The notes beneath the pieces were generated by a model that saw only the letters and a program-made list of their open reading frames with translations, did no database searches and had not been told where the DNA came from. From a virus (lineage: Duplodnaviria; Caudoviricetes), in IMG/VR virus record IMGVR_UViG_3300030372_004503, positions 1 to 38,792 of that record: DNA of 38,792 nt; one strand, given 5' to 3'. Position 1 is the first letter of the stretch; the number at the start of each line of letters is the position of its first letter. The position numbers were made by a program, and so were the translations under genes. Of this stretch, positions 1-33,952 are shown piece after piece.

Positions 1-3000
1 TACCTTTCTCAATACCGTCTCTAACTAATGTCTTATTCTCTATAAAATGAGGATGATAATCGTTAGGGTGAAATGAGCCTGTCTTTTCTAGCATTTGATT
101 TCTTAAAGAACCTATTAGTTTATCATATCCAGCTATAATAGCAGGGTCTGTAGCTCCCTTTCTTTCAAATGTTAAGCGGTCTAAATGAAGTGATCGTGAA
201 ATTTTTCTTAAATTATCTAGACCCATGCTCATATCCATAGGTTTACCACTTTTAATTTGAGTCATTAAATGCTTTGTATATTTAGTTGCATCAATCTTAG
301 GGATATTGCCTAATGGGTCCCAATATTGGATTTTACCTTTTTTAGTAAGAGCAAATTCTAGAATAGGGTCTTTCTTTTCAGGATTTGGAACATATTTCTG
401 AACCTTGCTATCCCACATATAGTGATCGCCTAATATTTTTAACATTGCTTTTTTAGAAGATTCAGTTAAAACATCATTAATTGAATCTACAATTTGTCTA
501 CCAGTTCTTTCAGCAGTACCAGTACCTATTCTTACAGCAAATTTCTGTTTCTCAGTATCATTCCATTCAGCTCTTTCACGAGCTTCTGTTAAATTCCTTT
601 CTAAGCTTGTCATATGATGCTTGTATTGAGTTTTAGACCTTCCCCTATTGGCATTCTTAAAAGCTCTCATATCTCTTTCTGCAGTAGCTACTTCAAAGAA
701 ATCTGCACCCCTACCTTCTGGTAAAGATTCATAACCTGTTTTCTTGAGAAGTTCATTATGAAATTGATTTTTAGTATCTTCATCTAATTTAGTCATAAAG
801 GATTGAGTCTCTCCTAATACATATTGTATAGACTCTATAACTTGAGTAGGTGCCCCAGTAGTACCCGATCTCCAATCTCCTTTAAAGTTTTGAAACCTAC
901 CCTCCTGCTCAAAAAGCTGAAAATCTTTAATCATAAGCTCTTCAGATACAGCTCTAGGAAAGAGGATATGATGCCTTTTTGAGAGCTTAACTATATTATT
1001 TTTTGTCAATTTACCATCTTTAATAAATATATTTCCACTACGCATGTCAGCAAAGAATCTATTCATCACCCTATAGTCTTCTACAGTCATAGCATCAAAG
1101 TTCTTTTGCAGTAGTCCTCTTGCTATTTTATTTAAAGACTGAGGAGTCCCGACGCTATTATGATAATAATTCAAATGACCCACAAGCTCATCAACCATTT
1201 CTCTTTCATGGTTTCTTAAATCCTTAGTAGCCAATTTAGCTCTTTCTCTAGCCTCTCTAATACCAGCTAATTCATCTTCCCATATATCTGGTTGTGCTTT
1301 TTCTTTAGATTCCGCTTCACCAGGCTTTGCTTCAATCTCTTCTTTAATATTAGTCTCTTTAAATTTTCCAATTTTAACTTCATCAAACTCCTTTGCATAT
1401 TCTTTGAAAAAATCACGCAATGGAGCGTCGTATACTAATTCACTTGAAAGACCTGTCTGTTGAAAATAAGTACCACTATTGTTTTTCCATATATCTCTTA
1501 AATGAGGTCTTAAAAAATCTTGCACAGCATTCGGAAGCTTGTCGTAGTAGTAGCTATCCATTAAATTTTTACCCCTATAGAAAGTAGAAAGCATCATAGT
1601 GTCAAAAAGATAAGCTTCTTGGTCACTTAATCTTCCATTGCCACCTTGAGCTTTTTTAAATTTATTTTGATGCTTAAATAAATCTATTCTATCGTTAATT
1701 TTTTGCTGTATTCTAAATGTACCTGCATCTTTATCTGTCTCTAAAAGTTTTTGTAGATACATTTTCCCCTTAGCATCAACCCTAACAAATGTTTGCTCAT
1801 TCATTAAATTAACTAAGCCTTTCTTCTTTTCAGCTCTCTCTAAAGACTTAATATTATTAACAAATTTAGACATTTGGTTAATAAATTTAAGTGAAGTCCC
1901 TGATTCTGTTGCATTATTAATAGCTTTAATAAGTTGCCTAGCAGACACTCTATCCATTGCATCGTTTTGCATGAAGTCAGAAGCCTGTTTATAAATTTTA
2001 TCTATATTCTTTTGTCTAAACTTTTTAGACCTTGTAATAGCAGCACTTAATTCACCAGCATTTTTAAATAATTTAGTATGTTGCCCAGGTAACGAGTACT
2101 TCCAAAAGTTTTCACTTTTAAAGTAATTACTATCCTTAACAGGTAATTTTTCAAAAAAGTCCTTATACAGAGATTTATTGTGAACCATTTCAACTCTAAC
2201 GTCGTGATCCCAAAGTTTTGCTTCAATAGCTTGCCCTATTATAGGATTATAAACAGACCTGAAAGATTTTCTACCTAAAAGCCCACCAGGAACATCAATC
2301 GACTCATTAAGCCTCATAAGCTCTACTGCATCTCCTTTATCATAAAGGTCATATCTATCCTGTAAAGGCTCTCTTTCTACTCTTCTAAGCATATCATCTG
2401 CATAGTTTATAGGCTCAAGCATTTCAACCATCTTGGGAAGCATTAACTTTCTTTGATTTGGAGTTAAACTATGAATAGGTAGCGATTTCTCTTGCATCTC
2501 ATCAAAATAATACCTTCTACCCTCATCCCAATTTTTACTAAAATATGCATTGTTAAAATCTTTAAAAACATTATATAGTCCCTGCTTTGCTTTAAATGTA
2601 GGACTAAATTGACTCCTAACACCTTCATTCCCATTCCAATCTATTTTAAAATAAGAATGCCATGCAGTATCAAAAAAAGACTTAGCACCTGAAAGGCCTA
2701 TTTCATCTAATGGGTCAGAACCAAAAGCAATATGAGCTCTTCCAAGTTCTCTAGCGTATTTTAATTCTGCCTCAGATGTTCTAGGTTCTATATATATTGT
2801 GTGAGACCTTTTCTTTTTACCTTTACCAGTACTAAAAGTAATAGCTTCTCTATAGTCAGGAGTCCAATTCTTTTTAATACTATCGCTTAAAGTCTCCCAT
2901 TTTGCCTCTGTTATAATTTGTCCCTTCTTATTAATATATCTCTGAACTGGATTATGTTGAGAAGCCTCATGAAATGCTTGTAAAATTTGCTTATTTATTA

Positions 3001-6000
3001 CAGCTGGGCCAAGTTGATCCCTACCTTTAGCAGCTCCCTCTCCCATCATATATCTTGATTGAGGGTCATATCTTGATATTAATGATTGTTTTAGCTCCAT
3101 AATGCCGCCTTCACCATCATTAGTAGTGGTTAATAAGTCTTGATATGTAGCTTTACCCTTTTTAATCTTAGCTATAACTTCAGCTTCATGTTTATTCTTA
3201 GGATTTAAATGCTGTAATAAAATTCTTTTACCTGTAGCAGTAATTTCTTCTGACTTATTGTCTTTCATTCTGCCAGTACCCTTTCCATCCTTATCAGTAG
3301 CTTCATATTCTTTTTTATTTCTATGGTACATATCTCTAAACTTTTTCTCTAATCCAAATAATATAGTTGTTTTATCTCCATCCAAATCTGCACCACCTAA
3401 AGCTTTCATAGCCCTAGGATGAAGAACTGCACCATGCCCCTCTATACCTGTGAAGCCAGCAAAGGTTAATTGATGTGCTCCAGAGATTGAATCCATAGGT
3501 GTTCTCATGCTTATAGTTTTAAAAAATTCAGTAACTTTAGGGTACCTGGCTCTTTTTTCAGGAGTGCTATTATAGACATCCCAAAGCTCTCCTAATTCCA
3601 TAGTAGCTTTTTTAGTTGATATTAAGTCACGAACATCATATTTAACCTTTCTATAAGACTCATCTAAGAAGATTAATTCATCTGGATTAGTTACACCATA
3701 TTTTTTCTTTAAATATTGACGAGCAGTCATTCCATCTACCCGATCATCTAAAGATAGGTTCATATCTTTAATACTATCTTTAACTGCAAGCCAAGGGTCT
3801 AAACCTCTCATTCTAGCAGAAACAGACGTCTGATACTTAGGCCTAGTAACTTGATTAACAAAATAATTCCTCATAGCTTGTCTCATATAATCTCTAATAT
3901 TTTTATGAAGAAATATAGATACATCTGGATATATTTCCATAAGACGAGAAATAGAGGATTGAACTGTTTTAGCTTTAGCTATAGCTTCTTGAAATTCTAC
4001 TTTATCTATATTACCGCTATTAAAATCAGAGAGAAGATTATCTGAGTTAACCTTTAATATTTGTTGATATAATTTAGAAACAAGCTCTGGATGGTCAACA
4101 TTTCTAATAGCTTCAGTAATTTCAACTAACCCAAATTTATCCATATTCTTAACTATATCTAGTTGCTCAGCTTCTGTCAAGCTTTCTCTTTTCAAAGCAT
4201 CATATAATTTACCGTTCCACAGAGCCTCACCTTGATAGTTAGTCCCAATATATTTATCTATAAATTCCTCAATAAGCTTTCTATCTATAGGTTTATAAGA
4301 AGATGGTACTAAATTAGATAACAATTGCTTTGGAATCATTTGAGCCTGAAGCATATGATCGGTCTGCTTTTCAGATAAAGAGCCCTTAATGTCGGATAAT
4401 TCCATAGTATATTTCTTACCACTAAAAGCAGCTCCTTGAGTAGCGTCTACATCTAAAACTCCAGGAACTCTAGTTCCAAATTCTTTAGCAGCGCTTACTG
4501 GAATTAATAACTGCCTTTTATTGTCTCTCATCCATTTTGAAGCTTCTGGGCTAGCTTTATGGAACATAAATTTACCTAAAAACATTCCATCGTTTTTGTT
4601 CCCAGACACAATAAAGGACTTATTTTGACCAGACTTAGGCAGTCCAAATGATTCGTTTAATGCATCAACAAACCTTTCTTCTGCCAAAATAGCCCCATCA
4701 GTAGACTCTGCATATAGAGTAGCCTTATCTCTTTTTGTAAGCTTTTTTTGGTCTACAAAAGAATCAGCTTCTTTAAATAAAGAAAAAGTAACTTTATTTC
4801 CTTTATAACCATCTTCATGAACTTCTTTAAACTTTTTAGAATCTAAAGCAAAGCCATCTGTCATCAATATTTGATTTCTTTTATTAAACCCTTTAGCATC
4901 AGGTATTTGAGTATTAAGAAGCTCTCCTTTTTTAGTTTTTATATTAACAACTTTACTTCTTTCACCTATATATTTAGCATACTCTTCTAATGTAAATCTG
5001 CTCTTTAATCCACTTATCTCTCTTTCCCATAATAGGTTAGAAATTATAGCTTCATCAAAAGAATCCTTAGTTAGCAGTCTACCTTTTCCATTAACCCATG
5101 CTTTTTTAAGCGCTTGATGGTGTTTTAAGCCATTCTTTTCAAGGTACCCAGCTATCTCCCTACCTTTTGCATAAATGTCTTTTATTTTGCCTAATTCTTG
5201 ATGATGCTTAAAGAAATACATTTTACCATCAGTTCCCTTGCCTCCAGCATAGTAATAACCTTTTTGAGAGGCTTGATGAATTATTTGCTGAATCAATCTA
5301 TTGGCAGCTTGATTTGCTCCATTCTTTTTCCATTTTGCATCACCCCAAAAATTGTTTTTATCTGCTAGATTTTTCAATTTAATATCATGAAACTTTCCGT
5401 TTTTATCAACAGCTGTAACATGGTCTAATACTATATAAGCTCTTTCAGAAGGCTCTTTTCCAGTAGATCTGATAAGTTCTTCGTATACCATTTCTATAGC
5501 TTTTACAGAATCACCTTGAAGCTTAGAATTTCCTGCATTAGTAGTTGGTCTATCTGATGGCATCATTTCAAGAGTGCCGTTAACCATTTTACCATCAGGT
5601 GTTGTATAGAAGTTAAAGGTAGCATGAGGAACTTGACGCTGCATATTTCGTCTCATTAACATTTGCCTTAATTCCCCTCTAGCAGCTGCATCAAAACTAG
5701 GTTGCTCTGGAAAAGCTTTTTGTATATCTTCTATAAAGGCTGTATCATCAATATGCTTACCATTATACTTATTATAATGCTTTTCTAATATACCTGCCAT
5801 TTCTTTCTTTGCATTACCTTTTATACTAGCAATAGTCTCAGGAGTAGCTCCTTCTGGATATATTTTATCTAAGTACTTATTAATAAAGAATTCTGATTTT
5901 TTCTGTATAACCATATCAGGAGTAGCACCAACATCAGAAGATGTAGAGTCATCTATCACTTCATCTTCAATTTTCTCATCTTTTAACTCTGCTTTAGCTC

Positions 6001-7570
6001 TTTCCCTTACATCTGTTAATTCGTATAGTTTATTATTAAGGTATTCATATGTTTTTGGAGCATCTTTCTTTAAAGCATTCCCAACTCCTTTTCTAAGAAC
6101 AACGATTTGTTTATCGTCTCCTATCTTATCAAAGACTTCCTCTTTTAGCCTTTTTCTATTAAGAGCAAGATTTTCATCTTTTAGATTAATGGGAATAACA
6201 ATAGCATTATCTTTATTCCTAAGACTTGCAGGCGCATTAGAGTCAATTAAAAATACTTTTTCAGGGTTTTGAGTCATTAATGCAGGAGTGATCCCTTCAA
6301 CTGCTTCTAGTTTTTCGCCAAGTTTGGCAGCCTTCTGTTCAACTTGAGCTCTTTCAACTCCTTTAGTAACCTCATTTATAACTATATCTCTATCAATAAG
6401 CTTCTCAAGTCCTGCTTTATCTAGCACTTCTGCTGACATACGAGCCTGAGCACTATGAGTACCATGTCTTAGAGTTATATTTTCTAATACAGATTTTTGA
6501 ACATCTTCGGGTAGCTTGTCCCAGCCTTTAACAAGTCTAGGGTCGTATACTGCTTGGTCCCAATTATAAGGATTACCATCTTCATCTAGCCTCTTTAAAG
6601 CCTTAGCATTAGTCTTGGCTTGCTTCTCAGTTTTTTGCACATGCTTCATAGCTGCCATTTGACCAGCAGTAGTTTCATGAGCACCGAAATAGGCACCTAA
6701 CAACCAAGAATATACTTGTTCAGGAGTAGTTTCTCCTCTCATTTTAGAAGCTAAGCCTTCATATACTGACATAGCTCCCATTCTTAAATATTGGTCTTCT
6801 TGTTGAGTAACATTAAGAACTTTTTTACCAGTTTTAGGGTCTATACTAGGGATACCACCACGATTAATTAAGTTTGCCACACCTCTAAATACACCACCAG
6901 TAAGAGCTCCATGTAAAGCTCCATCAATCATGGCTTTAGCACCGTACTGCCAAGCGCCAACTCCACTTGCTATACCAAGATGAAAAGCTCCTTCGGCTAC
7001 ATGACCAACTTTATCTCCAGTTAAAAATGTAGCAGCATCTTTAAATGCTTTATTTTTAGCACCTGTAGCTTTTCCTAATGTTTGAGCTATAATTGGAGAC
7101 ACTTTTTCAGTAGCTTTTCTAGCAACTACCATAGGTACAGATTTTCCTCTCAATGCTTTAGCGGCATCAACTAGAGACTGAGAGCGTAATAATTTTCCAG
7201 GCAAAGTTGGAACATAGCCAACAAAACCTGCCAATTCTCCAACAGACCTTGCTATTCTTTCATATGGATTTTGAGAAGGCTCTCCTACTTGAAATGTAGA
7301 AAAACCAGATATAAAACCTTCACCAACACCTCTTATAGCTCTTAATAGGTTAAAGTTTCTATCTTTAGGACTACCAACTCTTTCATTAGTAGTAGGTACA
7401 TCAGGGATTTCTAACTTATAATGAACGGCATGATTTTTTATAGCAGCAACAGATTCGCTTCTAAATAAATGAGGCTTAGCTAAGTAAGCCTTTAACATTC
7501 TCTCTGTTTGCGCCCTATCGTAGAAAGGCTTAAACTGGACTAAACTATCCAGCTTATCTAGTGGATTCAT
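1..7570 (-). CDS. Giant (>2,520 aa, 3'-truncated by window) virion protein containing a single-chain two-barrel RNA polymerase; putative virion RNAP
   Basis: ATG at 7570 (MNPLDKLDSLVQFKPFYD...), just past the stop of the upstream ORF. Every segment I translated is in this frame and stop-free down to base 2; absence from the ORF track fits no in-window stop. Motifs: STDGAIL (D958, 4697-4699), LGKF (K1000), SAAKEF (K1029), MRTPMDS (R1356), LGGADLDGDKTTILF (DLDGD at 3374-3388, residues 1395-1399), GRDQLGPAVIN (~3000). Confidence 0.9.
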   Translation of the reverse strand, partial: MNPLDKLDSLVQFKPFYDRAQTERMLKAYLAKPHLFRSESVAAIKNHAVHYKLEIPDVPTTNERVGSPKDRNFNLLRAIRGVGEGFISGFSTFQVGEPSQNPYERIARSVGELAGFVGYVPTLPGKLLRSQSLVDAAKALRGKSVPMVVARKATEKVSPIIAQTLGKATGAKNKAFKDAATFLTGDKVGHVAEGAFHLGIASGVGAWQYGAKAMIDGALHGALTGGVFRGVANLINRGGIPSIDPKTGKKVLNVTQQEDQYLRMGAMSVYEGLASKMRGETTPEQVYSWLLGAYFGAHETTAGQMAAMKHVQKTEKQAKTNAKALKRLDEDGNPYNWDQAVYDPRLVKGWDKLPEDVQKSVLENITLRHGTHSAQARMSAEVLDKAGLEKLIDRDIVINEVTKGVERAQVEQKAAKLGEKLEAVEGITPALMTQNPEKVFLIDSNAPASLRNKDNAIVIPINLKDENLALNRKRLKEEVFDKIGDDKQIVVLRKGVGNALKKDAPKTYEYLNNKLYELTDVRERAKAELKDEKIEDEVIDDSTSSDVGATPDMVIQKKSEFFINKYLDKIYPEGATPETIASIKGNAKKEMAGILEKHYNKYNGKHIDDTAFIEDIQKAFPEQPSFDAAARGELRQMLMRRNMQRQVPHATFNFYTTPDGKMVNGTLEMMPSDRPTTNAGNSKLQGDSVKAIEMVYEELIRSTGKEPSERAYIVLDHVTAVDKNGKFHDIKLKNLADKNNFWGDAKWKKNGANQAANRLIQQIIHQASQKGYYYAGGKGTDGKMYFFKHHQELGKIKDIYAKGREIAGYLEKNGLKHHQALKKAWVNGKGRLLTKDSFDEAIISNLLWEREISGLKSRFTLEEYAKYIGERSKVVNIKTKKGELLNTQIPDAKGFNKRNQILMTDGFALDSKKFKEVHEDGYKGNKVTFSLFKEADSFVDQKKLTKRDKATLYAESTDGAILAEERFVDALNESFGLPKSGQNKSFIVSGNKNDGMFLGKFMFHKASPEASKWMRDNKRQLLIPVSAAKEFGTRVPGVLDVDATQGAAFSGKKYTMELSDIKGSLSEKQTDHMLQAQMIPKQLLSNLVPSSYKPIDRKLIEEFIDKYIGTNYQGEALWNGKLYDALKRESLTEAEQLDIVKNMDKFGLVEITEAIRNVDHPELVSKLYQQILKVNSDNLLSDFNSGNIDKVEFQEAIAKAKTVQSSISRLMEIYPDVSIFLHKNIRDYMRQAMRNYFVNQVTRPKYQTSVSARMRGLDPWLAVKDSIKDMNLSLDDRVDGMTARQYLKKKYGVTNPDELIFLDESYRKVKYDVRDLISTKKATMELGELWDVYNSTPEKRARYPKVTEFFKTISMRTPMDSISGAHQLTFAGFTGIEGHGAVLHPRAMKALGGADLDGDKTTILFGLEKKFRDMYHRNKKEYEATDKDGKGTGRMKDNKSEEITATGKRILLQHLNPKNKHEAEVIAKIKKGKATYQDLLTTTNDGEGGIMELKQSLISRYDPQSRYMMGEGAAKGRDQLGPAVINKQILQAFHEASQHNPVQRYINKKGQIITEAKWETLSDSIKKNWTPDYREAITFSTGKGKKKRSHTIYIEPRTSEAELKYARELGRAHIAFGSDPLDEIGLSGAKSFFDTAWHSYFKIDWNGNEGVRSQFSPTFKAKQGLYNVFKDFNNAYFSKNWDEGRRYYFDEMQEKSLPIHSLTPNQRKLMLPKMVEMLEPINYADDMLRRVEREPLQDRYDLYDKGDAVELMRLNESIDVPGGLLGRKSFRSVYNPIIGQAIEAKLWDHDVRVEMVHNKSLYKDFFEKLPVKDSNYFKSENFWKYSLPGQHTKLFKNAGELSAAITRSKKFRQKNIDKIYKQASDFMQNDAMDRVSARQLIKAINNATESGTSLKFINQMSKFVNNIKSLERAEKKKGLVNLMNEQTFVRVDAKGKMYLQKLLETDKDAGTFRIQQKINDRIDLFKHQNKFKKAQGGNGRLSDQEAYLFDTMMLSTFYRGKNLMDSYYYDKLPNAVQDFLRPHLRDIWKNNSGTYFQQTGLSSELVYDAPLRDFFKEYAKEFDEVKIGKFKETNIKEEIEAKPGEAESKEKAQPDIWEDELAGIREARERAKLATKDLRNHEREMVDELVGHLNYYHNSVGTPQSLNKIARGLLQKNFDAMTVEDYRVMNRFFADMRSGNIFIKDGKLTKNNIVKLSKRHHILFPRAVSEELMIKDFQLFEQEGRFQNFKGDWRSGTTGAPTQVIESIQYVLGETQSFMTKLDEDTKNQFHNELLKKTGYESLPEGRGADFFEVATAERDMRAFKNANRGRSKTQYKHHMTSLERNLTEARERAEWNDTEKQKFAVRIGTGTAERTGRQIVDSINDVLTESSKKAMLKILGDHYMWDSKVQKYVPNPEKKDPILEFALTKKGKIQYWDPLGNIPKIDATKYTKHLMTQIKSGKPMDMSMGLDNLRKISRSLHLDRLTFERKGATDPAIIAGYDKLIGSLRNQMLEKTGSFHPNDYHPHFIENKTLVRDGIEKG

Positions 7571-7573: not shown

Positions 7574-8875
7574 TTACCCCATATTAGTCTGACTAAACTG
7601 ATTGTATGGATCGTAAGGATCTTCTGCGTTCTCTAACTCTTCCCTACTAGGAGTTCTCATACCGCTTAAAGTACTCCCTGCTAACCCTGCTCCTCCTAGA
7701 GCAAAGGCTGTATCCATATTAGCCAAGCTTCTTAGTCCCCCAGCACCGCTTGTTACTCCTGCGGCAGATGGAGTTCCTCCCATACTAACTAAGTGTGGTA
7801 TTGCATCCTTAATTCTAGTAGCACCTTTTTGAGCTAATGATGCTACGATTTTTTCAGCCTGGTCTGTTGTTAATGACACTTTACTATCTGAAGCAAGTTT
7901 TTGTATCCTTTTAGCAGTAATGTAAGGATTACCTCTAAGGTCTATCTGATTTACTATAGACCTTAAGTCTGTAGCAGAAACACCTGCTACTTTATCTGTG
8001 GCTCTAGCTCCAGTTGTTAATTGTCTGATTAATTCATTACCTGTTTTGCCTGTATGTTTTCTTGTAATTTGACTTGTTAATGTAGCTATTTGAGCTGGAC
8101 TCAAATTAGCACCTTTAACTACAGCTTCTAAATTACCGCCTTCTTTAATTGCTTTTCTAGCCTGCCATAATACATTTGCAGTACCGCCTTCCCCTGTTCT
8201 GCCTAATTTAGCAGCTCTATCTGTAGCCCATTTCCATCCTTGGCCAGCACCATAAGGTGTAAGAGCTCTTTTACCAGCTTCAATTGAGCCAGTTGTTAAT
8301 CTTCCAAGAGGTAGTTTTGATAAAGCAGTAGGAACTACTTTAGCAGCTGCAAGTCCAGTACCCCCTAAAGCTTTTGCTCCAGCAGATATTTTACCTAATC
8401 CTTGTGCGCCTCTTATAGCAGTGCCTATTCCTGCACCAGCTTTTCCAACATTACCTAAAGCAGCACCAACAGTAGGAGCAGCAGCACCACCTGTTAAGGC
8501 AGTCGCTACAACAGCCCCAACAACCTGTGCTACAGCACCAGTAATTTTAGCTGCATTAGCAGTAGTTCTAGTACTCTCGTCTGAATACCAAGAATCGGGA
8601 ATCAAATCAAATGCTATAGAATCTAATAAACCTACTCCACCAGCAAGTGCGTGTTCTCCAAAACCTGCAGTAGGCACAACTCTTTTAAATGGGATCTGGT
8701 ATTGCAAAGCAAGGCTTTCTAGTTGATTTACCATGCCTTTATTAAAAGTTTTAGGATTAGCTTGATACATCCTAATATAATGAGAAACTCTTTTTCGCTC
8801 ATTTTTTCTCATTCTTTCTTCTGGAGTTACAGGGGTATTCATTGCACCCATTCCCATATTTTGCATTAAAGGCAT
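7574..8875 (-). CDS. Putative internal virion/ejection protein with Gly/Ala-rich hydrophobic helices
   Basis: 433 aa; AGGAGA RBS; hydrophobic stretch ITGAVAQVVGAVVATALTGGAAAPTVGAAL; lies immediately upstream of the giant protein, the usual position of podovirus ejection proteins. Confidence 0.65.
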   Translation of the reverse strand: MPLMQNMGMGAMNTPVTPEERMRKNERKRVSHYIRMYQANPKTFNKGMVNQLESLALQYQIPFKRVVPTAGFGEHALAGGVGLLDSIAFDLIPDSWYSDESTRTTANAAKITGAVAQVVGAVVATALTGGAAAPTVGAALGNVGKAGAGIGTAIRGAQGLGKISAGAKALGGTGLAAAKVVPTALSKLPLGRLTTGSIEAGKRALTPYGAGQGWKWATDRAAKLGRTGEGGTANVLWQARKAIKEGGNLEAVVKGANLSPAQIATLTSQITRKHTGKTGNELIRQLTTGARATDKVAGVSATDLRSIVNQIDLRGNPYITAKRIQKLASDSKVSLTTDQAEKIVASLAQKGATRIKDAIPHLVSMGGTPSAAGVTSGAGGLRSLANMDTAFALGGAGLAGSTLSGMRTPSREELENAEDPYDPYNQFSQTNMG

Positions 8876-8884: not shown

Positions 8885-9934
8885 CTATTCCCAATCCCAG
8901 CTTTCCATACTGGATAGTAGTTTTTCTGTTCCATCAAAATTAATATATACTTTTCTATCCTTACCTTTTCCTTTAAGGATTATCTCATAAGTATCGTCAG
9001 CAAAGCCCATTCCAACATCTCCGTCGTTTTCAGTAATAGTCCAACTGTCTGGACCAGATTGCTGAATCCACATAGTATCAGAGTAGTCTCCTGCCCAATC
9101 TCCAGACTCGCCATCTTTACTTGCTTTAGCTGCTGCCATTATAAGATTATAGTCATCTACATCATCTCCTGAAGGAGCGGTAGTATATCCTTTAAACTCA
9201 ATACCTCCGCCCCACTCATCTCTATCAGCATGAACATCAGACCACTCTCCAGAACTGTATCCTGAAGGAATTGAAAATGCGTCATCTACATCACTACTTA
9301 CAGAACCAATATCCTTAATAGCGTCTCCAATATCCTCATCTTCTGGCAATGTATTACCAATATCAATATTATATCTTCTAAATGCGTTTTCTAATCCTTC
9401 GTGCCTATCAAAAAAGGCTGTAACCTCATCGGCATCCATACCTACGAACATTTTTTGAATATTATTTAACTGATGTTTTGCATAGTCTTCTGTTTGCGAA
9501 GAGATTGTAGCAATATCATCCATTGTAAGCTGAACTCCACCATATTCATCGCCATCAAGACCAGCGGCAAGATTCATTATGGTTCCATAATTACTCTTAC
9601 CTTCCCAGTCTTTTAATATCTCATTTGCGTTATCTGCTACTAATATATTCCCGTCTGGCCCCATACTAAAAGGAGAAGAAGTATTAATGTCGCCATAAAC
9701 GCTTCTTAGCACAGCATCACGCTTTTTATTTAGATTATTAGTCCTTTGAATCTTTTCAAATTCAGCTTGCTTAGCTTGCCTTAAAATTGAGTCATTTTCT
9801 TGCTTTTCTTTAAACTCTCTTTCCCAATTTTTTTGGTCTTGCTTTTTATTCCAAACATCAACAACACGATTCAACGAATTGTTCATCGCATCAGTTAATA
9901 CTTGATGTCCTTGATATGTTCCGAAGTTAGGCAT
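8885..9934 (-). CDS. Hypothetical protein, probable internal virion protein
   Basis: 349 aa; N-terminal charged coiled coil, very acidic C-terminal half; within the ejection cluster. Confidence 0.5.
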   Translation of the reverse strand: MPNFGTYQGHQVLTDAMNNSLNRVVDVWNKKQDQKNWEREFKEKQENDSILRQAKQAEFEKIQRTNNLNKKRDAVLRSVYGDINTSSPFSMGPDGNILVADNANEILKDWEGKSNYGTIMNLAAGLDGDEYGGVQLTMDDIATISSQTEDYAKHQLNNIQKMFVGMDADEVTAFFDRHEGLENAFRRYNIDIGNTLPEDEDIGDAIKDIGSVSSDVDDAFSIPSGYSSGEWSDVHADRDEWGGGIEFKGYTTAPSGDDVDDYNLIMAAAKASKDGESGDWAGDYSDTMWIQQSGPDSWTITENDGDVGMGFADDTYEIILKGKGKDRKVYINFDGTEKLLSSMESWDWE

Positions 9935-9936
9935 AT

Positions 9937-10719
9937 TTATTTATAATACTCTGAAGCTGTTAATTCAGCAGACTCTGGATCATATCCTCCAGGAAGTTTC
10001 CCTTTAAATAGTCCTTTGTCTAAGTCATGCCATCCTTTTTTAAGTAAACCACCGATTTTAGTTTTAGAATCTGCCATTCTTTGGTTTAGCATTTCTGGAT
10101 TTTTATCATATTTTATAGCATCCCCTTTTGGCTTTCCATAATCAGGGTCTCTATCAAAACCCATAAAGGTCTGGCCTGGGTCCCTATTTGCTCCAGCTTG
10201 GTCTTGCTCAACAGCTAGTCTCCAAGCTTTTTCAGTTTGAGGACCAAACTTACCGTCTGCCTCTATTCCTAAAAAACTCTGTAGAGCTTTAACTTGTTCT
10301 GTATTAGAAGGGTCAAGATTTTTTCTAAAGTAATTCATTCCTGCTCCTTGCCTTCTTGTCGCATTTCTTTCTTGCGCCATTGGACTAGGAGTATATTTAT
10401 CTACATCAAAACCCCCAAAAAATGGATCACCACTGCCGCCACCAGGAGCAGTTTGTTCTGCATCATCTCCCGTAAAGTAATTATAGGCATCATATGCTCC
10501 TTTTAGAGGACCATATCCTGGTATTAAGTATTGACTGTAATCTAATATATCACTACCTGTACTAGCCAATCTATCGTATGTATTTGTTACAGGATTTGTT
10601 ACTGCTTCTTTTGTTGGTGTACCCCCTGTCCAAGCATCAGGAAAAAGTCCTTCTTCTCCTGCTATATAACCTGAATATGCTCTTGGGTCAAACCAATAAT
10701 AATCGTCTGGCTTTGCCAT
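9937..10719 (-). CDS. Probable internal virion protein with a peptidoglycan-binding (PG_binding_1-like) motif
   Basis: 260 aa; NTEQVKALQSFLGIEADGKFGPQTEKAWRL fits the V-x-x-LQ-x-x-L...DG-x-FG-x-x-T-x-x-A consensus; AGGAGA RBS. Confidence 0.7.
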   Translation of the reverse strand: MAKPDDYYWFDPRAYSGYIAGEEGLFPDAWTGGTPTKEAVTNPVTNTYDRLASTGSDILDYSQYLIPGYGPLKGAYDAYNYFTGDDAEQTAPGGGSGDPFFGGFDVDKYTPSPMAQERNATRRQGAGMNYFRKNLDPSNTEQVKALQSFLGIEADGKFGPQTEKAWRLAVEQDQAGANRDPGQTFMGFDRDPDYGKPKGDAIKYDKNPEMLNQRMADSKTKIGGLLKKGWHDLDKGLFKGKLPGGYDPESAELTASEYYK

Positions 10720-10740
10720 TTTTTCTTCTCCTTTTTATTT

Positions 10741-11490
10741 TTATTTCCAACTACCATAAGTAGGACTTTCCCACTCATATTCTCGTAGTGCTTTTTTCCA
10801 TTCTGGAACTTTTTCTTTGGTATCTGATGCACTAGTCTCATCGTCGGTCTCGATTGCCCCACTTTGATTTGCAAATGCATCGTTTACTATCCCTGTATCA
10901 TCTCCAGAGGTTCCAGAAGTTCCGCCTGTATTAATCAATTCTTTTTCTGATTCATTTATATCTAGTTGAGCGTTCTTGTCAACGCTGTCATTTTGAGGAG
11001 TTGTATTAACATTTCCAACATTTGTTCCTAATGATGCTTGGTATGCCTCATACCCTTTCTGACTACCTCCACCCCATTTTAAATCAACTGCTCCAGCTTG
11101 TGTTCCCGCCTTATTCATATAGTATGGTAAATTAGTTTGAGGATTTATAGTTTGCGCTAAATGTGCTTGCATAGACCCAACATGGTCAGGATTAGTTTGG
11201 TCAAACTGAAATCCTTGAGCATTAATGTCTACAGGGTTATATGATATATTGTTCATCATTATCTTACTACTTGTTTCTACCTCATTTTTACTATCATTTA
11301 TTAAGTTATCTATTTTCTGGTTACTATCTATAGTGTTATCATCGCTTAATGCCTGAGTAATTTTCAAAATTTCAGAAGCATCTACATCCTGATAATCAAG
11401 TTTATCAAAATTAACTAAGTTTTGATGAACATATGTTTTATCTATTAATGCATTATTTTGTAGCTGGAGAGCGAATTCATTATTATCCAT
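10741..11490 (-). CDS. Probable internal virion protein with a degenerate peptidoglycan-binding motif
   Basis: 249 aa; DHVGSMQAHL...VDLKWGGGSQKGYEAYQASLG resembles the same consensus; TAATG coupling with the upstream gene. Confidence 0.5.
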   Translation of the reverse strand: MDNNEFALQLQNNALIDKTYVHQNLVNFDKLDYQDVDASEILKITQALSDDNTIDSNQKIDNLINDSKNEVETSSKIMMNNISYNPVDINAQGFQFDQTNPDHVGSMQAHLAQTINPQTNLPYYMNKAGTQAGAVDLKWGGGSQKGYEAYQASLGTNVGNVNTTPQNDSVDKNAQLDINESEKELINTGGTSGTSGDDTGIVNDAFANQSGAIETDDETSASDTKEKVPEWKKALREYEWESPTYGSWK

Positions 11491-12179
11491 TACACCATCT
11501 TATTCCAATCTACATATAGTAAACCATTTTTTCCTTTAACTACGGCTTCAGGAAGATGCTTTCTAACTTCTTGAGCCATTACATTAACATGTTTCTTCTT
11601 TCTACCTTTATAATTAAACTCATATATACCAGTTTTTTTACCATTTTTTAACTTTATATTGCCTTTTTTCTTTATATTCTCTTTCATCTTAGCATCACAC
11701 ATAGTCATAGCAGTAGTTGCTAAATTCATAACATTGCCTGCCATTGCTGAGTTATAATTGTTTTTATTGGTAATATTCTGTCCATATGCAGAAGCCATAG
11801 CATCTCTTGCTGTCATATCAGCTGACATATTGCCCTGTTTAATTCCTATAGCTTGTTGGGTATTCATTCCAGCTTGTTTAAGCCAGTTTTGATAGGCCAT
11901 TCCTGTTATATTGCCTACATTTTGATTGTTCATGCCTTGCATTATACCACTTTGATTGCCCATACCTGTAGCAGCCATATTCATTCTATTAATTCTATTT
12001 TGAGTATATGCGCTATCTTCTGTAGACTGTAGTGCTTGTTGCAAAACTCCTTGATTATACGAAGAATTAGGGTCCATTAGGCCAGCGGCCATTTGGTCTA
12101 ATTCCCCCATATAATCAGAGGTCATCATGTCATAGACTTTATTTGGATCTATTGGATCTGGTGCTGAGAACCATCCCAT
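11490..12179 (-). CDS. Putative ejection/pilot protein with a C-terminal intramolecular-chaperone autocleavage (peptidase S74-like) domain
   Basis: 229 aa; N-terminus MGWFS followed by a Q/N/M/A-rich region typical of pilot proteins; C-terminus CDAKMKENI...GIYEFNYK...VMAQEV...PEAV...GLLYVDW matches the S74 pattern. Confidence 0.75.
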   Translation of the reverse strand: MGWFSAPDPIDPNKVYDMMTSDYMGELDQMAAGLMDPNSSYNQGVLQQALQSTEDSAYTQNRINRMNMAATGMGNQSGIMQGMNNQNVGNITGMAYQNWLKQAGMNTQQAIGIKQGNMSADMTARDAMASAYGQNITNKNNYNSAMAGNVMNLATTAMTMCDAKMKENIKKKGNIKLKNGKKTGIYEFNYKGRKKKHVNVMAQEVRKHLPEAVVKGKNGLLYVDWNKMV

Positions 12180-21887: not shown

Positions 21888-22646
21888 TTACCCTTCGAGT
21901 AAATTTCCATTAATAATCGCCTTGCCATTTTTTATTTCAACTATCTCAACATAATGATCGTTCTTATCAAATGTCACTATAGCAAATGCCTGCTTCCAAT
22001 TCATGGGTCTTCCGCCTATAAATTCGTTATCTTCTCTAGACATACTTTTTAAACAGCCTATGCTATATGCCGATATTGGTCCTTTTCCTGATTTATCAGT
22101 AAATACCTGTATATCGTGAAAATGTCCATACATGACACTTTCTTTTAAATTCTTACAATGAGCATTAGCATGATGCATTCCACCATAATTATGCCCATGA
22201 TAGAAGTTTAAATCGCCTATTTTTAAACAACTATCAAAACCTGCTCTATAGAACTTGTATCCCCTATCCTTAAGATTTAATGCTACCTTGCACTCATATT
22301 GAGGTAAATAAGGATAACTATCTACAAAATAATCTAACCATAGTTCATGGTTGCCTTGAATGAAGTGCTTTTCTTTAACATTGACTTTATCTAACGCTTC
22401 ATCAATTATATCCATTCCTTTATTAACATCGTCTACATCTGTTATTACTTCAGGAAGATAATATTCTAAATTAGGTTTAGTTTTATTCTTCCATTTCCAC
22501 CTAGAGACACTAGACCATTCTCCAGTATCTCCAAGGTCGATGTACCCATCAGGCTTGATATCTATTATTGCTTTACATAGCAATGATATAGACTTCTTAT
22601 CATGCAATGGGAAATGCTTATCAGGAGTAACAATATATTTCTTCAA
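21888..22646 (-). CDS. Calcineurin-like metallophosphoesterase
   Basis: Motifs PDKH, DLGD, GNHE, FYHGH, GHFH in the canonical order. Confidence 0.9.
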   Translation of the reverse strand: MKKYIVTPDKHFPLHDKKSISLLCKAIIDIKPDGYIDLGDTGEWSSVSRWKWKNKTKPNLEYYLPEVITDVDDVNKGMDIIDEALDKVNVKEKHFIQGNHELWLDYFVDSYPYLPQYECKVALNLKDRGYKFYRAGFDSCLKIGDLNFYHGHNYGGMHHANAHCKNLKESVMYGHFHDIQVFTDKSGKGPISAYSIGCLKSMSREDNEFIGGRPMNWKQAFAIVTFDKNDHYVEIVEIKNGKAIINGNLLEG

Positions 22647-27194: not shown

Positions 27195-27596
27195 CTAAAA
27201 ATCATAAGGAGTGATAACACCCCCTTGAGTATGGTGAGTTCTTTTATATTTTTTAGCCTCTCTTACGGCTAGTCCGTATTGTTGGTCAAAGTATTGAGCC
27301 ATTTGTAAATTCATTCCATCTCCTGGCAATTTATATAATTCTCCAAGCACTTTAAATACTAATGCTTCATGAAATTGAGAAGGTAACTCAGAAGATTTAG
27401 TTAAATCAGTTGTAAAAGGAGTAGGCTTTGATGTATAGTGAAGCCTTAGAGTCTTACCAGCAGATGTTGTTGTAGGTGATTGCCAATGTGGGTCGGTATT
27501 AGCATCAGCACTACCTTCTGTCCTAGTTTCAACTACACCTATTCTTTCTCCGTCTATAAACCAATAATATTTATCTGCATTACTTACTGTAGACAT
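27195..27596 (-). CDS. Head-tail adaptor/ring protein, C-terminal half
   Basis: YYWFIDGERIGVV...LRLHYTSKP...ELPSQFHEALVFKVL...AQYFDQQY matches the second half of podophage adaptor (P22 gp4 / tail tubular A-like) proteins. Confidence 0.65.
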   Translation of the reverse strand: MSTVSNADKYYWFIDGERIGVVETRTEGSADANTDPHWQSPTTTSAGKTLRLHYTSKPTPFTTDLTKSSELPSQFHEALVFKVLGELYKLPGDGMNLQMAQYFDQQYGLAVREAKKYKRTHHTQGGVITPYDF

Positions 27597-27859
27597 TATG
27601 TAATATCTCCTTCTATAGGTTTGTTAAGAAGTCTTTTTATTGCAATGTTATCCACCTCTACTCTTTTTATATCAAGCATAGAAGGGTCTAAATCATAATA
27701 TCTTTTACCTGCAACTAAAGTGTCATCTGCTACAGCTTCTATCATTTTTGTTCTTGCACCAAAATCATCTTGAGCTCTATTCAAAGCTTTCCGTATAAGA
27801 GTTTCCCCTGATTCAGGATGATGTTGTTGAACCATTTCTATCATTTCTTTTTGTGTCAT
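27596..27859 (-). CDS. Head-tail adaptor/ring protein, N-terminal half
   Basis: MTQKEMIEMV...IRKALNRAQDDF...LVAGKRYYDLDPSMLDIKRVEV matches the first half of the same family. Confidence 0.65.
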   Translation of the reverse strand: MTQKEMIEMVQQHHPESGETLIRKALNRAQDDFGARTKMIEAVADDTLVAGKRYYDLDPSMLDIKRVEVDNIAIKRLLNKPIEGDIT

Positions 27860-28812
27860 TCTCTTTCTCCTTGCTTCTCATCCTGAAGATTTTTAATAAT
27901 ATTTCCTAAATTCTGAGCAACAGTTGCATGCAAGTCTTTAACTAATGCATACACCTCATTATCCTCGTCTTGAGTGGCGAGAGTAGCTAATTTGTGCTCT
28001 AATATTTTCATAGCTATTCTTTGGATAAATAAATCTTCAACTTCCTCTGGAATTCCGTCAAAACTTTCTTTAAAGTCCCAACAAATTCTCCAGACATTTG
28101 TCCCTACCCCTGGCTTACCATCATCTGCATCTCCGCTTGCTAAGTCTGAAGTATGAGCAACTATGCAGTAATAGTTTTTACCACCTTCAGAAACAATATC
28201 TCCAACAACATAACCTGTTGCGTCTGCCCAAGCAGTAGCACTTGAAGAAGTTGGATACCATTGTTCTCTATTATATAGGAATACTTGTATCCCGCTACCA
28301 TTATTATCTGTAACTGGATGGCATAAATATTGAATATTAGTAGTTCCAGTTGCGCTTGGAGCAACATTTAGCCTTTGAAACTGACTGTTATTCTCTAACC
28401 AGTAAACAGGACTTAAGCTTGTTGCATAATATATGCTGCTTGCATCTTTTGCTTTAAATGAACTTTCATAAGGGATTTCTTTACAGGGTCTTGTTATATA
28501 GTTTTCTGCTGTCATAGCACCATCTGCAATAGTATAGTCAGTTTGAGTTCTCATAACTAATAGAACTAAAGAATTAGTAACATCCATAGGACTACCTTGA
28601 ACATTTAAATAATCACCCGCACCTGGGTCTGCTGGAATATCTTCTGGATCTACAGGTTCGGTAGCCTTTAATAAAAGCATCCTACGAGGAATCGTAGTAG
28701 CCATGTCCCAAACTCCTTCTTCAAATATATTCTCTGGAGAAGTAAGATTGTCGATGTATGTAGCGTTATTCTCACCTAAAACTTGTAATACTCTTGATTT
28801 AATTGTTGCCAT
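27856..28812 (-). CDS. Neck/adaptor-like protein with an inserted CBM5/12-type carbohydrate-binding module
   Basis: First gene after the MCP; SPVYWLE...LNVAP and GIPEEVEDLFIQRIAMKIL adaptor-like segments flank AWADATGYVVGDIVSEGGKNYYCIVAHTS...KPGVGTNVW. Confidence 0.6.
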   Translation of the reverse strand: MATIKSRVLQVLGENNATYIDNLTSPENIFEEGVWDMATTIPRRMLLLKATEPVDPEDIPADPGAGDYLNVQGSPMDVTNSLVLLVMRTQTDYTIADGAMTAENYITRPCKEIPYESSFKAKDASSIYYATSLSPVYWLENNSQFQRLNVAPSATGTTNIQYLCHPVTDNNGSGIQVFLYNREQWYPTSSSATAWADATGYVVGDIVSEGGKNYYCIVAHTSDLASGDADDGKPGVGTNVWRICWDFKESFDGIPEEVEDLFIQRIAMKILEHKLATLATQDEDNEVYALVKDLHATVAQNLGNIIKNLQDEKQGERE

Positions 28813-28830
28813 TTTTTCCTTTTCTAATCA

Positions 28831-28850
28831 GGGGGAGCGAAAACTCCCCC
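28831..28850 (-). terminator. Stem-loop downstream of the major capsid gene (leaky terminator or mRNA-stabilising hairpin)
   Basis: Minus strand GGGGGAG-TTTTCG-CTCCCCC, 7-bp stem, followed by TGATTAG (no proper U tract). Confidence 0.65.
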
Positions 28851-28874
28851 GTCATAGATTTATTTAACTATTGA

Positions 28875-30407
28875 TTATGCACCAGCTTCAAAGTCAATAA
28901 CAGCGTGAGTCTCAGGTAGTAATACCTCAAGTCCAGCTTCTGTTATAATCATGTCTTTTCTGCCGTCAACGTCATTGTCTTGAACATTAGTTTCAACGAA
29001 AGTATCACGAGATACTCCGTTTCCACTTAATGGTCTTAACGATACGTTTGATAAATCAACACATACTGCCTTATCTTCCATATCATTCCTAAACAATGGA
29101 TGTGCTACGAAATTCATAGCTCCCCATGATGTAGAGATTGATGTGATATCGATAGGCATAAAGCTAGATGTTTTAACTTCCATTCCAGCTCTGAATACAC
29201 CTGAGGCTTCTGAAGCGACGCCTTCTGGTTTCAAAGAGTTAGAAACGAAGTTACCAGCACCTACTTTATGTAGAGCATTTATAACTTTACGAGAAGTTAG
29301 GCATAGCTTTTGACCGCTATTTCCACCTTCCCAATTCATGTAGTCATCCATGATGTCAATAATACCATCATAATGGAATCCAGCTCGCACATCATAACCG
29401 CTTCCGCTGCCATGAGTTGTACCACTGTATCCTAATTGGTATTTTTTACCACCATTGTTTCTAATGAATGGCTCGATACCCCAAGAGTTTCTTGTATCTT
29501 GATCGGTATATTTACCATAACCAAACAAGAATGCATTCTCTAGATCCATTTTATGAGATTTAAGATGTTCCCCATAAATACGTTTCCATTCGTTTGCATA
29601 CCCTCTGTATCTAGTAGCCATCATTGAACCTGACATTAATGGAACTGAAGTTTTGAATATCTGTGTGTAGAATTCTACTGCAGACAGTTCATCTCTCCAT
29701 CCATCAGGAGCACCAGTAGCCTCACCCCATTGAGAACCAATTACTTGACCTTCATAGAGTTGCTCGCTATCTGTTGCTTCTGTAGCTATTCCGCTTCCAG
29801 TACTTACTGTTACTAAACTAGCTAAAGGAACTACAGCGAATCCGCCTCGAGCTTTACCAGCTTCTGATTTTTCCACTTTGTTCCAATTAGCTGCGTCAGG
29901 GTCTTCTGTATAGTATATAGGCTCAGCCATGAGCTTATAAGCTGTACCATCTATTCTTACTATTTGATTTTTAGTTAAGAATATTGGCGAATAACCACCT
30001 GTTGCACTAGTTCCAAGAGATGTAAAGCTTTGCAACTTTTTACCTTGGTAACTATAGTCAACTTCAAATGTAATATGTGTACTTGTATTAGCTACAGTAC
30101 TACCTGCTACTACTATATCTGCTGCATCATCATATGCGCCAGATGAAAAGTATACATGTTGCATTGTAAAGTTTCGTCTTTGCCACTGGTTACGATATTC
30201 TAATGGTTTCCAAACTGTTTCGTCAGTAGGTTTTTTACCTAACTTAGATAAGTATGAGAAGAAAATTGATGTTTCTGGAGCCAATTCATGAACCTTATCA
30301 CCAATACCAAACGTTCTTCTAATATTATCAACATCTTGTCCACCAAAAGCAGGTCTCGCAACGCCAGTATGTCCTACTTGGTACCCCGTACCCGTATAAT
30401 CTGCCAT
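28875..30407 (-). CDS. Major capsid protein (HK97 fold)
   Basis: 510 aa after portal and scaffold; GGAGG RBS; YTQIFKTSV...SGS..AT..G, HKMDLENAFLFG and DGRKDMIITEAGLEV...HAVI motifs; followed by a hairpin. Confidence 0.9.
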   Translation of the reverse strand: MADYTGTGYQVGHTGVARPAFGGQDVDNIRRTFGIGDKVHELAPETSIFFSYLSKLGKKPTDETVWKPLEYRNQWQRRNFTMQHVYFSSGAYDDAADIVVAGSTVANTSTHITFEVDYSYQGKKLQSFTSLGTSATGGYSPIFLTKNQIVRIDGTAYKLMAEPIYYTEDPDAANWNKVEKSEAGKARGGFAVVPLASLVTVSTGSGIATEATDSEQLYEGQVIGSQWGEATGAPDGWRDELSAVEFYTQIFKTSVPLMSGSMMATRYRGYANEWKRIYGEHLKSHKMDLENAFLFGYGKYTDQDTRNSWGIEPFIRNNGGKKYQLGYSGTTHGSGSGYDVRAGFHYDGIIDIMDDYMNWEGGNSGQKLCLTSRKVINALHKVGAGNFVSNSLKPEGVASEASGVFRAGMEVKTSSFMPIDITSISTSWGAMNFVAHPLFRNDMEDKAVCVDLSNVSLRPLSGNGVSRDTFVETNVQDNDVDGRKDMIITEAGLEVLLPETHAVIDFEAGA

Positions 30408-30420
30408 TGTTTATTCCTCC

Positions 30421-31497
30421 TTAAAGGATGTTTTGTTTGTTATTGTCATCTATTAGCACGTCCATAAAGCTTTTTGGAGCATTATGCTGAGAAGGAGCTG
30501 CAGTCTGAACACCCATAGGGGTAGGAACTGACTGGGCTCTTTGCATCTGCTGAAACTCAGGACTTGGCTGATTGTTGACAGGAGGAGCACTTGGAGGAGG
30601 TGGAGCAGGTGGCGCTTGAGCTGGAGGAGTTCCTCTAAATTGCTGGTCGCCTGTTGACTGCTTAAACTTATAGTAGCCAACTAGATCGTCCATATTTATA
30701 GAGCTCGGACTATTCATTGTCTGAATAAACTGCTCTGCTTCTTGCGGCTGCATTCCATACCTTTTTCCTACAAATTCTCGTATCCTATTCATCTCTTCAA
30801 CTTGTTGTCGTCCTTGCTTTCTTTGTAACTCCAACTTTTCAAGCTTATCGATACGTGTTTCATACTCGTCGCGCATTTTTTGAGTTTCATATTGGTGAGC
30901 AAGATTGCTATAAGTCTGCATATCTTCTCTCCATTGCTCATGTTCTTGCACATAACGAGCGCTTTCGCTATTAGGATCATTTAGAGCATCTTCTTGAGTA
31001 AACCCAAGAGGGGCTTGCGGTCTTTCTGGTGGTGGAGGAAACTCTTCGCCACCTTCAGGAGCCTGGCCTTCTGCTGTATGTTTAGCAGTATCAATCTGCT
31101 TTACAGCCTCGGGGTTATTTCTAAGATAATCTACCATAGGAGCATATTCATTCATCTCCTTTAATTGATTCTCTAGCTTGGCAGCTTTAGACTGCCAATG
31201 CTGATATCTAACTTCGTCGTTGCTTTTAACCTCATTTTGTGAAAAATCAGGTTGTTGCTGAGGTGGAACCTGGTTAGGTTGCTCAGTTGGTGTAGGTGAC
31301 CCTTGTGGAGGAGGAGCTTTACCTAATTCAACAGCCGCAGCTCTTGATTCAATAACTTCCTCTGTCTGCAAAGGCAATCCTAATGCAGCTTCAAAACTTC
31401 TATCAGCTTTTTGTTCTAGCTCTTGTATTCTGGTTTCCTCGAGCTTTTGTTCCATTTCTGGCAAGTCGGGAGCAGAATTTTCTCTAGCTTCATTCAT
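30421..31497 (-). CDS. Capsid scaffolding protein
   Basis: 358 aa; acidic, Pro/Gln-rich, coiled coil; between portal and MCP. Confidence 0.75.
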   Translation of the reverse strand: MNEARENSAPDLPEMEQKLEETRIQELEQKADRSFEAALGLPLQTEEVIESRAAAVELGKAPPPQGSPTPTEQPNQVPPQQQPDFSQNEVKSNDEVRYQHWQSKAAKLENQLKEMNEYAPMVDYLRNNPEAVKQIDTAKHTAEGQAPEGGEEFPPPPERPQAPLGFTQEDALNDPNSESARYVQEHEQWREDMQTYSNLAHQYETQKMRDEYETRIDKLEKLELQRKQGRQQVEEMNRIREFVGKRYGMQPQEAEQFIQTMNSPSSINMDDLVGYYKFKQSTGDQQFRGTPPAQAPPAPPPPSAPPVNNQPSPEFQQMQRAQSVPTPMGVQTAAPSQHNAPKSFMDVLIDDNNKQNIL

Positions 31498-33949: not shown

Positions 33950-33952
33950 CGC

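Follow-up and report, generated by a model that had tools for sequence, protein, structure and literature searches.

A giant gene of a tailed-phage contig encodes a predicted single-chain two-barrel RNA polymerase that is probably injected

The stretch of DNA analysed here, which we call the window, consists of one virus contig of 38.8 kb (IMG/VR record IMGVR_UViG_3300030372_004503; 38,792 nucleotides; Caudoviricetes), one end of which is occupied by a giant minus-strand open reading frame (ORF; Table 1). The predicted fold of its central region, together with catalytic-type residues that are invariant in relatives found without a motif filter, indicates that the protein is almost certainly a two-barrel RNA polymerase contained in a single chain, as the first-pass annotation of this DNA had proposed. 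We further consider it probable that this is an injected DNA-dependent enzyme, with a predicted core fold, that transcribes the early genes; by analogy with gp66 of phi14:2, a crAss-like phage, and with the virion polymerase of phage N4, such transcription would be independent of the host.

The ORF, for which more than 2,520 codons had been claimed, runs for 2523 codons without a stop and is left open by the contig end; the five other frames of 2–7570 hold 124–399 stops. Its closest relative, P0001, is 3104 amino acids (aa) long and 60% identical over the entire 2523 aa, and since it aligns over the whole ORF, approximately 590 C-terminal residues are missing from ours; judged by the relatives, a full protein of approximately 3100 aa is expected. 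Contigs from four marine runs differ over the ORF stretch by 29 substitutions, 26 of them synonymous, and by no indels. Neither the internal stops nor the frameshifts that had been named as grounds for rejecting the claim are seen in the ORF. The stretch is partly present in eight runs from four studies, all of them marine metagenomes, and the best-matching run may be the source sample of the window. In two related loci the polymerase gene is divided between two ORFs (L005, 246 + 3078 aa; L065, 445 + 1481 aa, the latter cut by the contig end), for which a frameshift, an assembly error and a true split are all candidates.

The protein has no match in Pfam, PHROGs, NCBIfam or the PDB sequences, and tblastn found none among the INPHARED phages; the two NCBI-named homologues that we looked up are both labelled ‘hypothetical protein’. 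A word-indexed search with aa 880–1680 as the query, in which candidates were limited to 1387–4416 aa and 7978 were scored, gave 254 homologous proteins, the 120 listed being 2418–3561 aa long and encoded on contigs of up to approximately 56 kb. In addition, a phmmer search without the word index gave 267 clusters at 50% identity, and a pattern search of IMG/VR gave 194 stretches, of which 80 were retained as loci.

The motifs to which the first-pass annotation had drawn attention, i.e. TDGAIL (D958), K1000, SAAKEF (K1029), RTP (R1356), GGADLDGDK, QLGPAVIN (1519) and AHIAFGSDP (1612), all proved to lie in the ORF where they had been placed, and DLDGD (1395–1399) is the sole DxDxD of the protein. 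Because the invariance of GGADLDGD in alignment A2 was circular, its loci having been picked by that very pattern, we discounted it and assessed conservation in the phmmer set, which was chosen without a motif filter. Of the 267 phmmer matches 150 were listed, and these are the basis of the counts that follow: 106 span both barrels, and 100 of these were aligned, giving 101 rows with the window (five of the remaining six were left out by a pattern that missed their motif and one by its length). Among the matches listed, both RxP and DxDxD are present in all 106 core-spanning relatives, the six unaligned ones having been checked by inspection. D958 is kept in 100 of the 101 rows, G959 in 99 and the NKR motif in 86–89, with mostly gaps in the rest, and the distance from RxP to the first catalytic aspartate is 39 aa in 99 rows and 45 aa in one. 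In alignment A1, comprising the window core and 60 of the 120 listed homologues picked to fit a size limit, D958, G959, K984, K1000, K1029, R1356, P1358 and the three aspartates are invariant, as are D1619 and P1620. The first-pass annotation had described a DG pair plus two lysines in one barrel and RxP some 35–40 aa before DxDxD in the other; the DG pair and the spacing hold, whereas the lysine count has to be raised by a third invariant residue, K984, and DxDxD is itself conserved throughout the listed core-spanning relatives. According to PMC9508822, the catalytic set of QDE-1 comprises D709, K743, K767, R962-x-P964 and D1007/1009/1011, with R962 and P964 reading the 2′-OH. The residues conserved here follow the order of that set, and their putative equivalence is drawn from order and spacing.

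The polymerase core was modelled by AlphaFold2 from 77 sequences (aa 880–1680), with a predicted local distance difference test score (pLDDT) of 88.2 and a predicted template modelling score of 0.86. Foldseek ranked gp66 (E 1.6e-6) and then QDE-1 (E 6.3e-5) first, and two double-psi barrels in one chain are predicted. In the VIA comparison, QDE-1 scored Z 17.4 (448 residues aligned, root-mean-square deviation 4.7), gp66 Z 13.1 (574 aligned, 4.3), maize RDR2 Z 13.0, P74 gp62 Z 12.2 and P23-45 gp96 Z 11.1; the six best rows (Z 10.9–17.4) are all single-chain two-barrel polymerases, P23-45 gp96 appearing twice. Large subunits of polymerases from cells and viruses come next, at Z 7–8, and rows other than RNA polymerases reach at most 7.4. 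As Z is affected by target length, the ranking of QDE-1 over gp66 is no measure of kinship. The predicted structure matches QDE-1 655–1167 and gp66 743–1751 in VIA across nearly the full length, and the best matches in BFVD are unnamed proteins, one of them 43% identical, after which come giant proteins from uncultured cr-phages. The QLGPAVIN helix, in which R1506 and R1517 are conserved, is likely to be the bridge helix and the AHIAFGSDP region the trigger loop, both being identified in the model by order alone.

Outside the core, the ESM Atlas gave LPD22 (0.91) and P22 gp16 (0.87) for the N-terminal region, and matches to LPD38 and LPD39 as well, all of which we take as leads only. The best-conserved part of the C-terminal region falls in the stretch missing from the window, and when three full-length homologues were scanned, one gave a sub-threshold PLxRFG match (E 3e-7) in this region. 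For one homologue (L007), the last 900 aa gave a moderate fold prediction (pLDDT 71.7) and no fold match, the best being E 0.057 in Foldseek and a VIA Z of 8.0 covering a 62-residue helical hairpin, which does not show a new fold.

That the polymerase is packaged and injected is probable, judging by its late-operon position, its lack of cysteine, its cysteine-free neighbours and the cargo-like inserts of its relatives. The gene comes after those for terminase, portal, capsid and tail and after five small genes. The nearby 229-aa protein matches phrog_6121 (E 1.5e-13) and phrog_4287 (E 2.9e-13), the PHROGs labels being ‘virion structural protein’ and ‘DNA ejection protein’, and the 260-aa neighbour has a weak peptidoglycan-binding match below the cut-off (PF01471, E 2e-4). 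In the relatives, a convergent early arm lies on the opposite strand beyond the polymerase end of the virion operon, and in all 64 evaluable loci (those of the 80 with at least 3 kb downstream) the strand switches 0–2 long genes past the polymerase. The gene had been described as the last of the ejection cluster; this is true of 22 of the 64 loci and it is often penultimate, the end of the cluster lying outside the window. One or two same-strand genes of at least 200 aa follow it in 42, the first of them cysteine-free in 38. The following gene, e.g. L083 11380–12744 (minus strand), is variable (200–900 aa), mostly cysteine-free and likely to be further injected cargo; Pfam gave no match for the one such gene scanned.

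The 2523 aa contain no cysteine, against 15 expected from the window genes at 12418 and above, and 184 of the 194 homologues of at least 2700 aa likewise have none (17 cysteines in 605,371 residues). The four neighbours of the polymerase gene in the window are free of cysteine, and so is the upstream neighbour in 73 of 74 loci (one cysteine in 32,628 aa); opposite-strand ORFs of related loci contain 1.47%. In N4-like ejected polymerases cysteine amounts to 0.00075% compared with 0.865% in their proteomes, a suppression that for Schitoviridae is ascribed to passage through the periplasm (PMC11445570). In addition, inserted cpYpsA SLOG, AlkB-type 2OG-Fe(II) oxygenase, NADAR, DUF7831 or HhH domains were found in three of six and five of 14 homologues scanned, which were picked partly by such annotations or by length; inserts of this kind are as expected of injected cargo. 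The packaging and injection proposed at first pass thus gain indirect support from operon position and the near-total absence of cysteine.

On this reading, and by analogy with gp66 and N4, the polymerase would be made late and packed into the phage head. It would be ejected unfolded, ahead of the DNA, via a channel formed by the small cysteine-free neighbour proteins and would refold in the host cytoplasm, where initiation may occur at or near a conserved non-coding element that precedes the first early gene.

Several observations weigh against an injected two-barrel polymerase. A search of the PDB sequences with phmmer and three profiles gave no significant match, the Foldseek TM-scores are low (0.32–0.35), and the residue equivalences to known polymerases rest on order and spacing. 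When compared with gp66 by hhalign, the RxP–DxDxD segment is in register at an E value of 0.23, and a hidden Markov model comparison with gp66 in a nine-protein set gave 0.035, neither being significant. A Kyte–Doolittle plot of the window polymerase shows no membrane-spanning stretch, unlike the N-terminal domain of N4, and cysteine is also missing from several short window proteins that have no part in ejection, for which reason its absence is telling only for long proteins. The C-terminal region has no fold match, and the leads to polyvalent-protein domains are weak.

Of the other explanations, it is improbable that a genuine two-barrel RNA polymerase stays unpackaged and acts in the infected cell on middle or late genes, as YonO or the non-virion Thermus enzyme does. 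Such a role might be suspected from the canonical DLDGD, which lacks the isoleucine thought to keep gp66 self-inhibited before packaging (bioRxiv 2020.03.07.982082), and from the Z of 12.2 for P74 gp62, itself a non-virion enzyme. However, its gene lies at the distal end of the virion operon and so it would be made last, the polymerase and its neighbours are cysteine-free whereas early-arm genes are not, and approximately 2300 aa are carried beyond the core. Quite unlikely too is an injected enzyme whose main job is to pull in the genome by transcription or to lay down RNA primers for replication, and not to express early genes. Transcription-coupled DNA entry has been proposed for the N4 and P23-45 enzymes, complete relatives have a primase-helicase and no recognisable DNA polymerase, and a single conserved upstream element is found in place of a repeated promoter, all of which would suit these roles; yet they are compatible with early transcription and do not exclude it, and against priming stands the primase domain (PriCT-1, weak) that the relatives already encode.

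Very unlikely is a two-barrel DNA polymerase of the PolD type or an RNA-dependent polymerase. A PolD-like enzyme would fill the place of the DNA polymerase not recognised in the relatives, but the arginine of the invariant RxP contacts 2′-OH groups in QDE-1 (PMC9508822), and PolD is described as having neither the bridge helix nor the trigger loop that are both predicted here (PMC10770324). RNA copying is suggested by QDE-1 and RDR2 being among the top fold matches; in opposition to this, the Gln/Arg pair specific to RNA-dependent RNA polymerases (Q736, R738) apparently corresponds, in a tentative mapping, to lysine and mostly phenylalanine here, and the genome is that of a double-stranded DNA tailed phage. 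Finally, that the protein is structural and serves ejection with an inactive polymerase fold, or that its motifs arose by chance, is scarcely credible: no profile library recognises the protein, but eight catalytic-type positions are invariant among proteins approximately 25–55% identical and 26 of the 29 population variants are synonymous.

For the injected polymerase that we favour, the conserved non-coding element is a candidate site of action. Positions 38078–38166 are 91% identical to the relative G001, whose polymerase is only approximately 50% identical. Two patterns agreed in finding the element in five IMG/VR contigs, of which four are polymerase carriers already known, and in G005 a profile recovered the 64 columns at its 5′ end (E 1.3e-10); the G004 record stops short of this region. 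Copies lie at L082 17240–17410, L085 13462–13626 and L103 11031–11095, the last on the minus strand. The element is GC-rich and conserved far above the neighbouring proteins, and after its conserved 5′ core comes a variable stretch that may be structured. Rfam gave no match in it, a sigma-70 consensus site is absent, RNA covariation is weak (six sequences in three groups), and the early regions hold no repeated promoter motif, this being the one conserved upstream element. A promoter of the polymerase, a genome end and an RNA leader are all candidates. As a candidate promoter it is of value, because gp66 is still without one as described in bioRxiv 2020.03.07.982082. A strong hairpin (38707–38735) also follows the first plus-strand gene and, read on the minus strand, scores as a terminator.

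In the window protein, the fourth residue of DxDxD is glycine (G1398), in place of the isoleucine or valine that all crAss-like polymerases are stated to carry and that is tied to a self-inhibited state (bioRxiv 2020.03.07.982082). In 100 relatives among the matches listed, it is glycine in 69, isoleucine in 25, alanine in five and serine in one. With the motif columns left out, a FastTree tree requires 11 changes between glycine and isoleucine; well-supported branches force at least six for the isoleucine group, long branches making the tree rough. Both states occur in one lineage, since L089, which has DVDID and so is of the isoleucine type, is cysteine-free and faces the same primase-helicase. 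Such a natural Gly/Ile/Ala series makes the proposed self-inhibition of gp66 directly testable. A bolder conjecture, which we consider doubtful, is that the family, with its 267 or more clusters at half identity, forms an ancient injected lineage of its own, nearer than gp66 to the ancestor of the eukaryotic RNA interference (RNAi) polymerases, that its active-site loop has repeatedly flipped between an always-ready DxDGD and a self-inhibited DxDID, and that 38070–38231 would be the first identifiable promoter of a gp66-like enzyme.

The phage itself was compared with Crassvirales. Its major capsid protein matches Pfam SU10_MCP and, at BLAST level, only Roseobacter phage CRP-810 among 50,697 records that include phi14:2; the giant gene of CRP-810 was rejected as a counterpart of the polymerase, having no DxDxD and no profile match. 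Among the 30 portal matches listed out of 31, none is crAss-like by name, and the best matches of the terminase large subunit are 27% identical, with none crAss-like among the 40 of 811 listed (27 ‘Bacteroides’ records being uninspected); neither protein has a close cultured match. Four relatives rated complete measure 52.4–53.9 kb, the relatives overall being 52–56 kb, and the other arm of the complete ones carries a primase-helicase (in G001 PriCT-1/DnaB at L083 5938–7722, the PriCT-1 match being weak), an AAA protein and HNH, along with a ubiquitin-like operon and small genes. Pfam recognised no DnaG, SNF2 helicase, IHF or DNA polymerase in the 27 window ORFs or in 20 further G001 ORFs, and no second RNA polymerase was recognised in the G001 early arm (20 ORFs scanned). 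Markers of Crassvirales are DnaG primase, SNF2 helicase and IHF, in most cases together with a DNA polymerase, and a genome of approximately 100 kb or more (PMC7886860; PMC10136315 was compared as a further source of markers). With its different head genes, replication genes and genome size, this phage does not look like a member of that order. Shine–Dalgarno motifs precede 17 of the 27 window genes (random mean 5.3, maximum 13 in 1000), and as Bacteroidota rarely use such motifs, this argues against a Bacteroidota host. Two apparent host links were set aside: a GTDB scan gave a single 47-kb phage contig (L089, CAZVQB010000004.1) in a Saccharibacteria metagenome-assembled genome, probably by contamination, and a GenBank homologue lies on a 31.7-kb contig in a Rhodospirillaceae metagenome-assembled genome.

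In the relatives we also noted the ubiquitin-like operon of four genes in the early arm (L083 1163–4382 in G001; also L085–L087, L103 and L105), which encodes a 79-aa ThiS-like protein (weak), a 450–514-aa protein, a JAB peptidase (weak) and a ThiF/E1 enzyme, as well as a peptide deformylase in G001 (L082 18716–19123) and, in G003 and G002, a radical SAM enzyme resembling spore photoproduct lyase (L085 15521–16381).

Table 1. Features of the window, with residue numbers referring to the giant ORF and functional names being predictions
Feature	Position	Strand	Basis or remark
Giant ORF, single-chain two-barrel RNA polymerase with flanking domains	2–7570	minus	2523 aa, 0 Cys, cut by contig end
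C-terminal helical region, aa 1681–2523, running past contig end	2–2530	minus	Alignments of relatives
Polymerase core modelled, aa 880–1680	2531–4933	minus	AlphaFold2
Helix-DP-helix, aa 1600–1640 (AHIAFGSDP), likely trigger loop	2651–2773	minus	Model helices 721–739 and 750–761; order
Kinked long helix, aa 1503–1537 (QLGPAVIN, R1506, R1517), likely bridge helix	2960–3064	minus	Model helices 624–638 and 641–658; order
DLDGD 1395–1399, predicted catalytic metal-binding triad	3374–3388	minus	Motif, alignment
R1356-T-P1358, RxP ‘Pro-gate’	3497–3505	minus	R and P each in 101/101 rows
K984, K1000 and K1029, first-barrel lysines	4484–4621	minus	Each in 101/101 rows
D958-G959, likely fourth metal-binding aspartate, first barrel (QDE-1 D709)	4694–4699	minus	Conservation, order
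NKR motif 896–898, candidate counterpart of helix before first barrel (QDE-1 R671)	4877–4885	minus	Putative mapping by order
N-terminal region, aa 1 to approximately 430, conserved, Gly/Ala-rich; possibly ejection	6281–7570	minus	No hydropathy peak of at least 1.0
433-aa protein, Gly/Ala-rich, 0 Cys; candidate membrane or tunnel ejection protein	7574–8875	minus	Directly upstream of polymerase gene
Three genes, 349/260/249 aa, 0 Cys	8885–11490	minus	Cys count
229-aa protein, C-terminal S74 chaperone	11490–12179	minus	Pfam, PHROGs
Metallophosphoesterase	21888–22646		Pfam/PHROGs
Head module, same operon: SU10-type adaptors and major capsid protein, P22-like portal, terminase large subunit	27195–35452	minus	Pfam, PHROGs, BLAST
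Virion-module protein with CBM5/12 carbohydrate-binding module	27856–28812		Pfam/PHROGs
M15-type endolysin	36953–37345		Pfam/PHROGs
Conserved non-coding element, divergent gap just before first opposite-strand gene; core approximately 38078–38164	38070–38231	plus	Comparison with relatives

A large marine group thus appears to use a gp66-type core in an N4-like ejection chassis at half the genome size. This would be a core module that passes from one phage lineage to another and escapes all the profile libraries used here, and the family enlarges the sample on which the proposed phage origin of RNAi polymerases can be judged. A literature search, with most subscription papers beyond reach, found no description of the family, which also goes unmentioned in the accessible part of PMC11348598.

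Among known systems, phi14:2 gp66 is the best Foldseek match and has the most residues aligned (574); it shares the two barrels in one chain and an RxP placed 39 aa before DxDxD (R1322 and D1361 in gp66). Its gene likewise sits close to the late operon's end and faces the early arm, and gp65, gp66 and gp67 are similarly cysteine-poor (one, two and one cysteines respectively). It differs in having DFDID in place of DLDGD, and in being a 2180-aa protein accompanied by gp65 and gp67 where a single chain of approximately 3100 aa is expected here; its phage has other head and replication genes, compared with an approximately 54-kb phage here, and there is no significant sequence match. The crAss polymerases are, however, very divergent from each other too (PMC7886860). 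QDE-1 and plant RDR2 (PDB 7Y7P, 2J7N and 7W84) share the glycine at the fourth motif position and the order of catalytic residues, whereas in QDE-1 the spacing from RxP to DxDxD is 45 instead of 39, the phage protein is three times longer, and the Q736/R738 pair is apparently replaced as noted above. Two-barrel polymerases carried in virions have been described for Crassvirales and for Thermus phage P23-45 (PMC10770324). The Thermus enzymes, P23-45 gp96 (virion, fused to the tape measure) and the non-virion gp64/P74 gp62, share the single-chain two-barrel fold (Z 10.9–12.2), but P23-45 is a siphovirus with two polymerases, whereas here one enzyme is found in a podovirus-type operon without a tape measure.

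The phage polyvalent proteins of Iyer et al. (2017) are likewise large late proteins of several domains whose enzyme inserts vary, and weak leads to LPD38, LPD39, LPD22 and PLxRFG point to a connection with the present family; the accessible part of that work names only an N4-type polymerase module (PMC5512222). With the N4/Schitoviridae virion polymerases (gp50, DEV gp71), the protein shares a length of approximately 3000–3500 aa, a three-part layout and the absence of cysteine, and the gene is likewise the largest, placed after small ejection genes. The N4 enzyme differs in its T7-type core, as opposed to the two-barrel core predicted here, and no transmembrane stretch was detected in ours. 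The three-part, cysteine-free chassis with a T7-type core is known from N4 (PMC13434306, PMC4496689, PMC5512222). The layout of the present protein is that of the N4 virion polymerase, i.e. an N-terminal region, a polymerase and a large C-terminal region, the mid-chain core being of gp66 type; core type and chassis are each known already, and what is likely to be new is their combination, a gp66-type core in a cysteine-free N4-like chassis outside Crassvirales.

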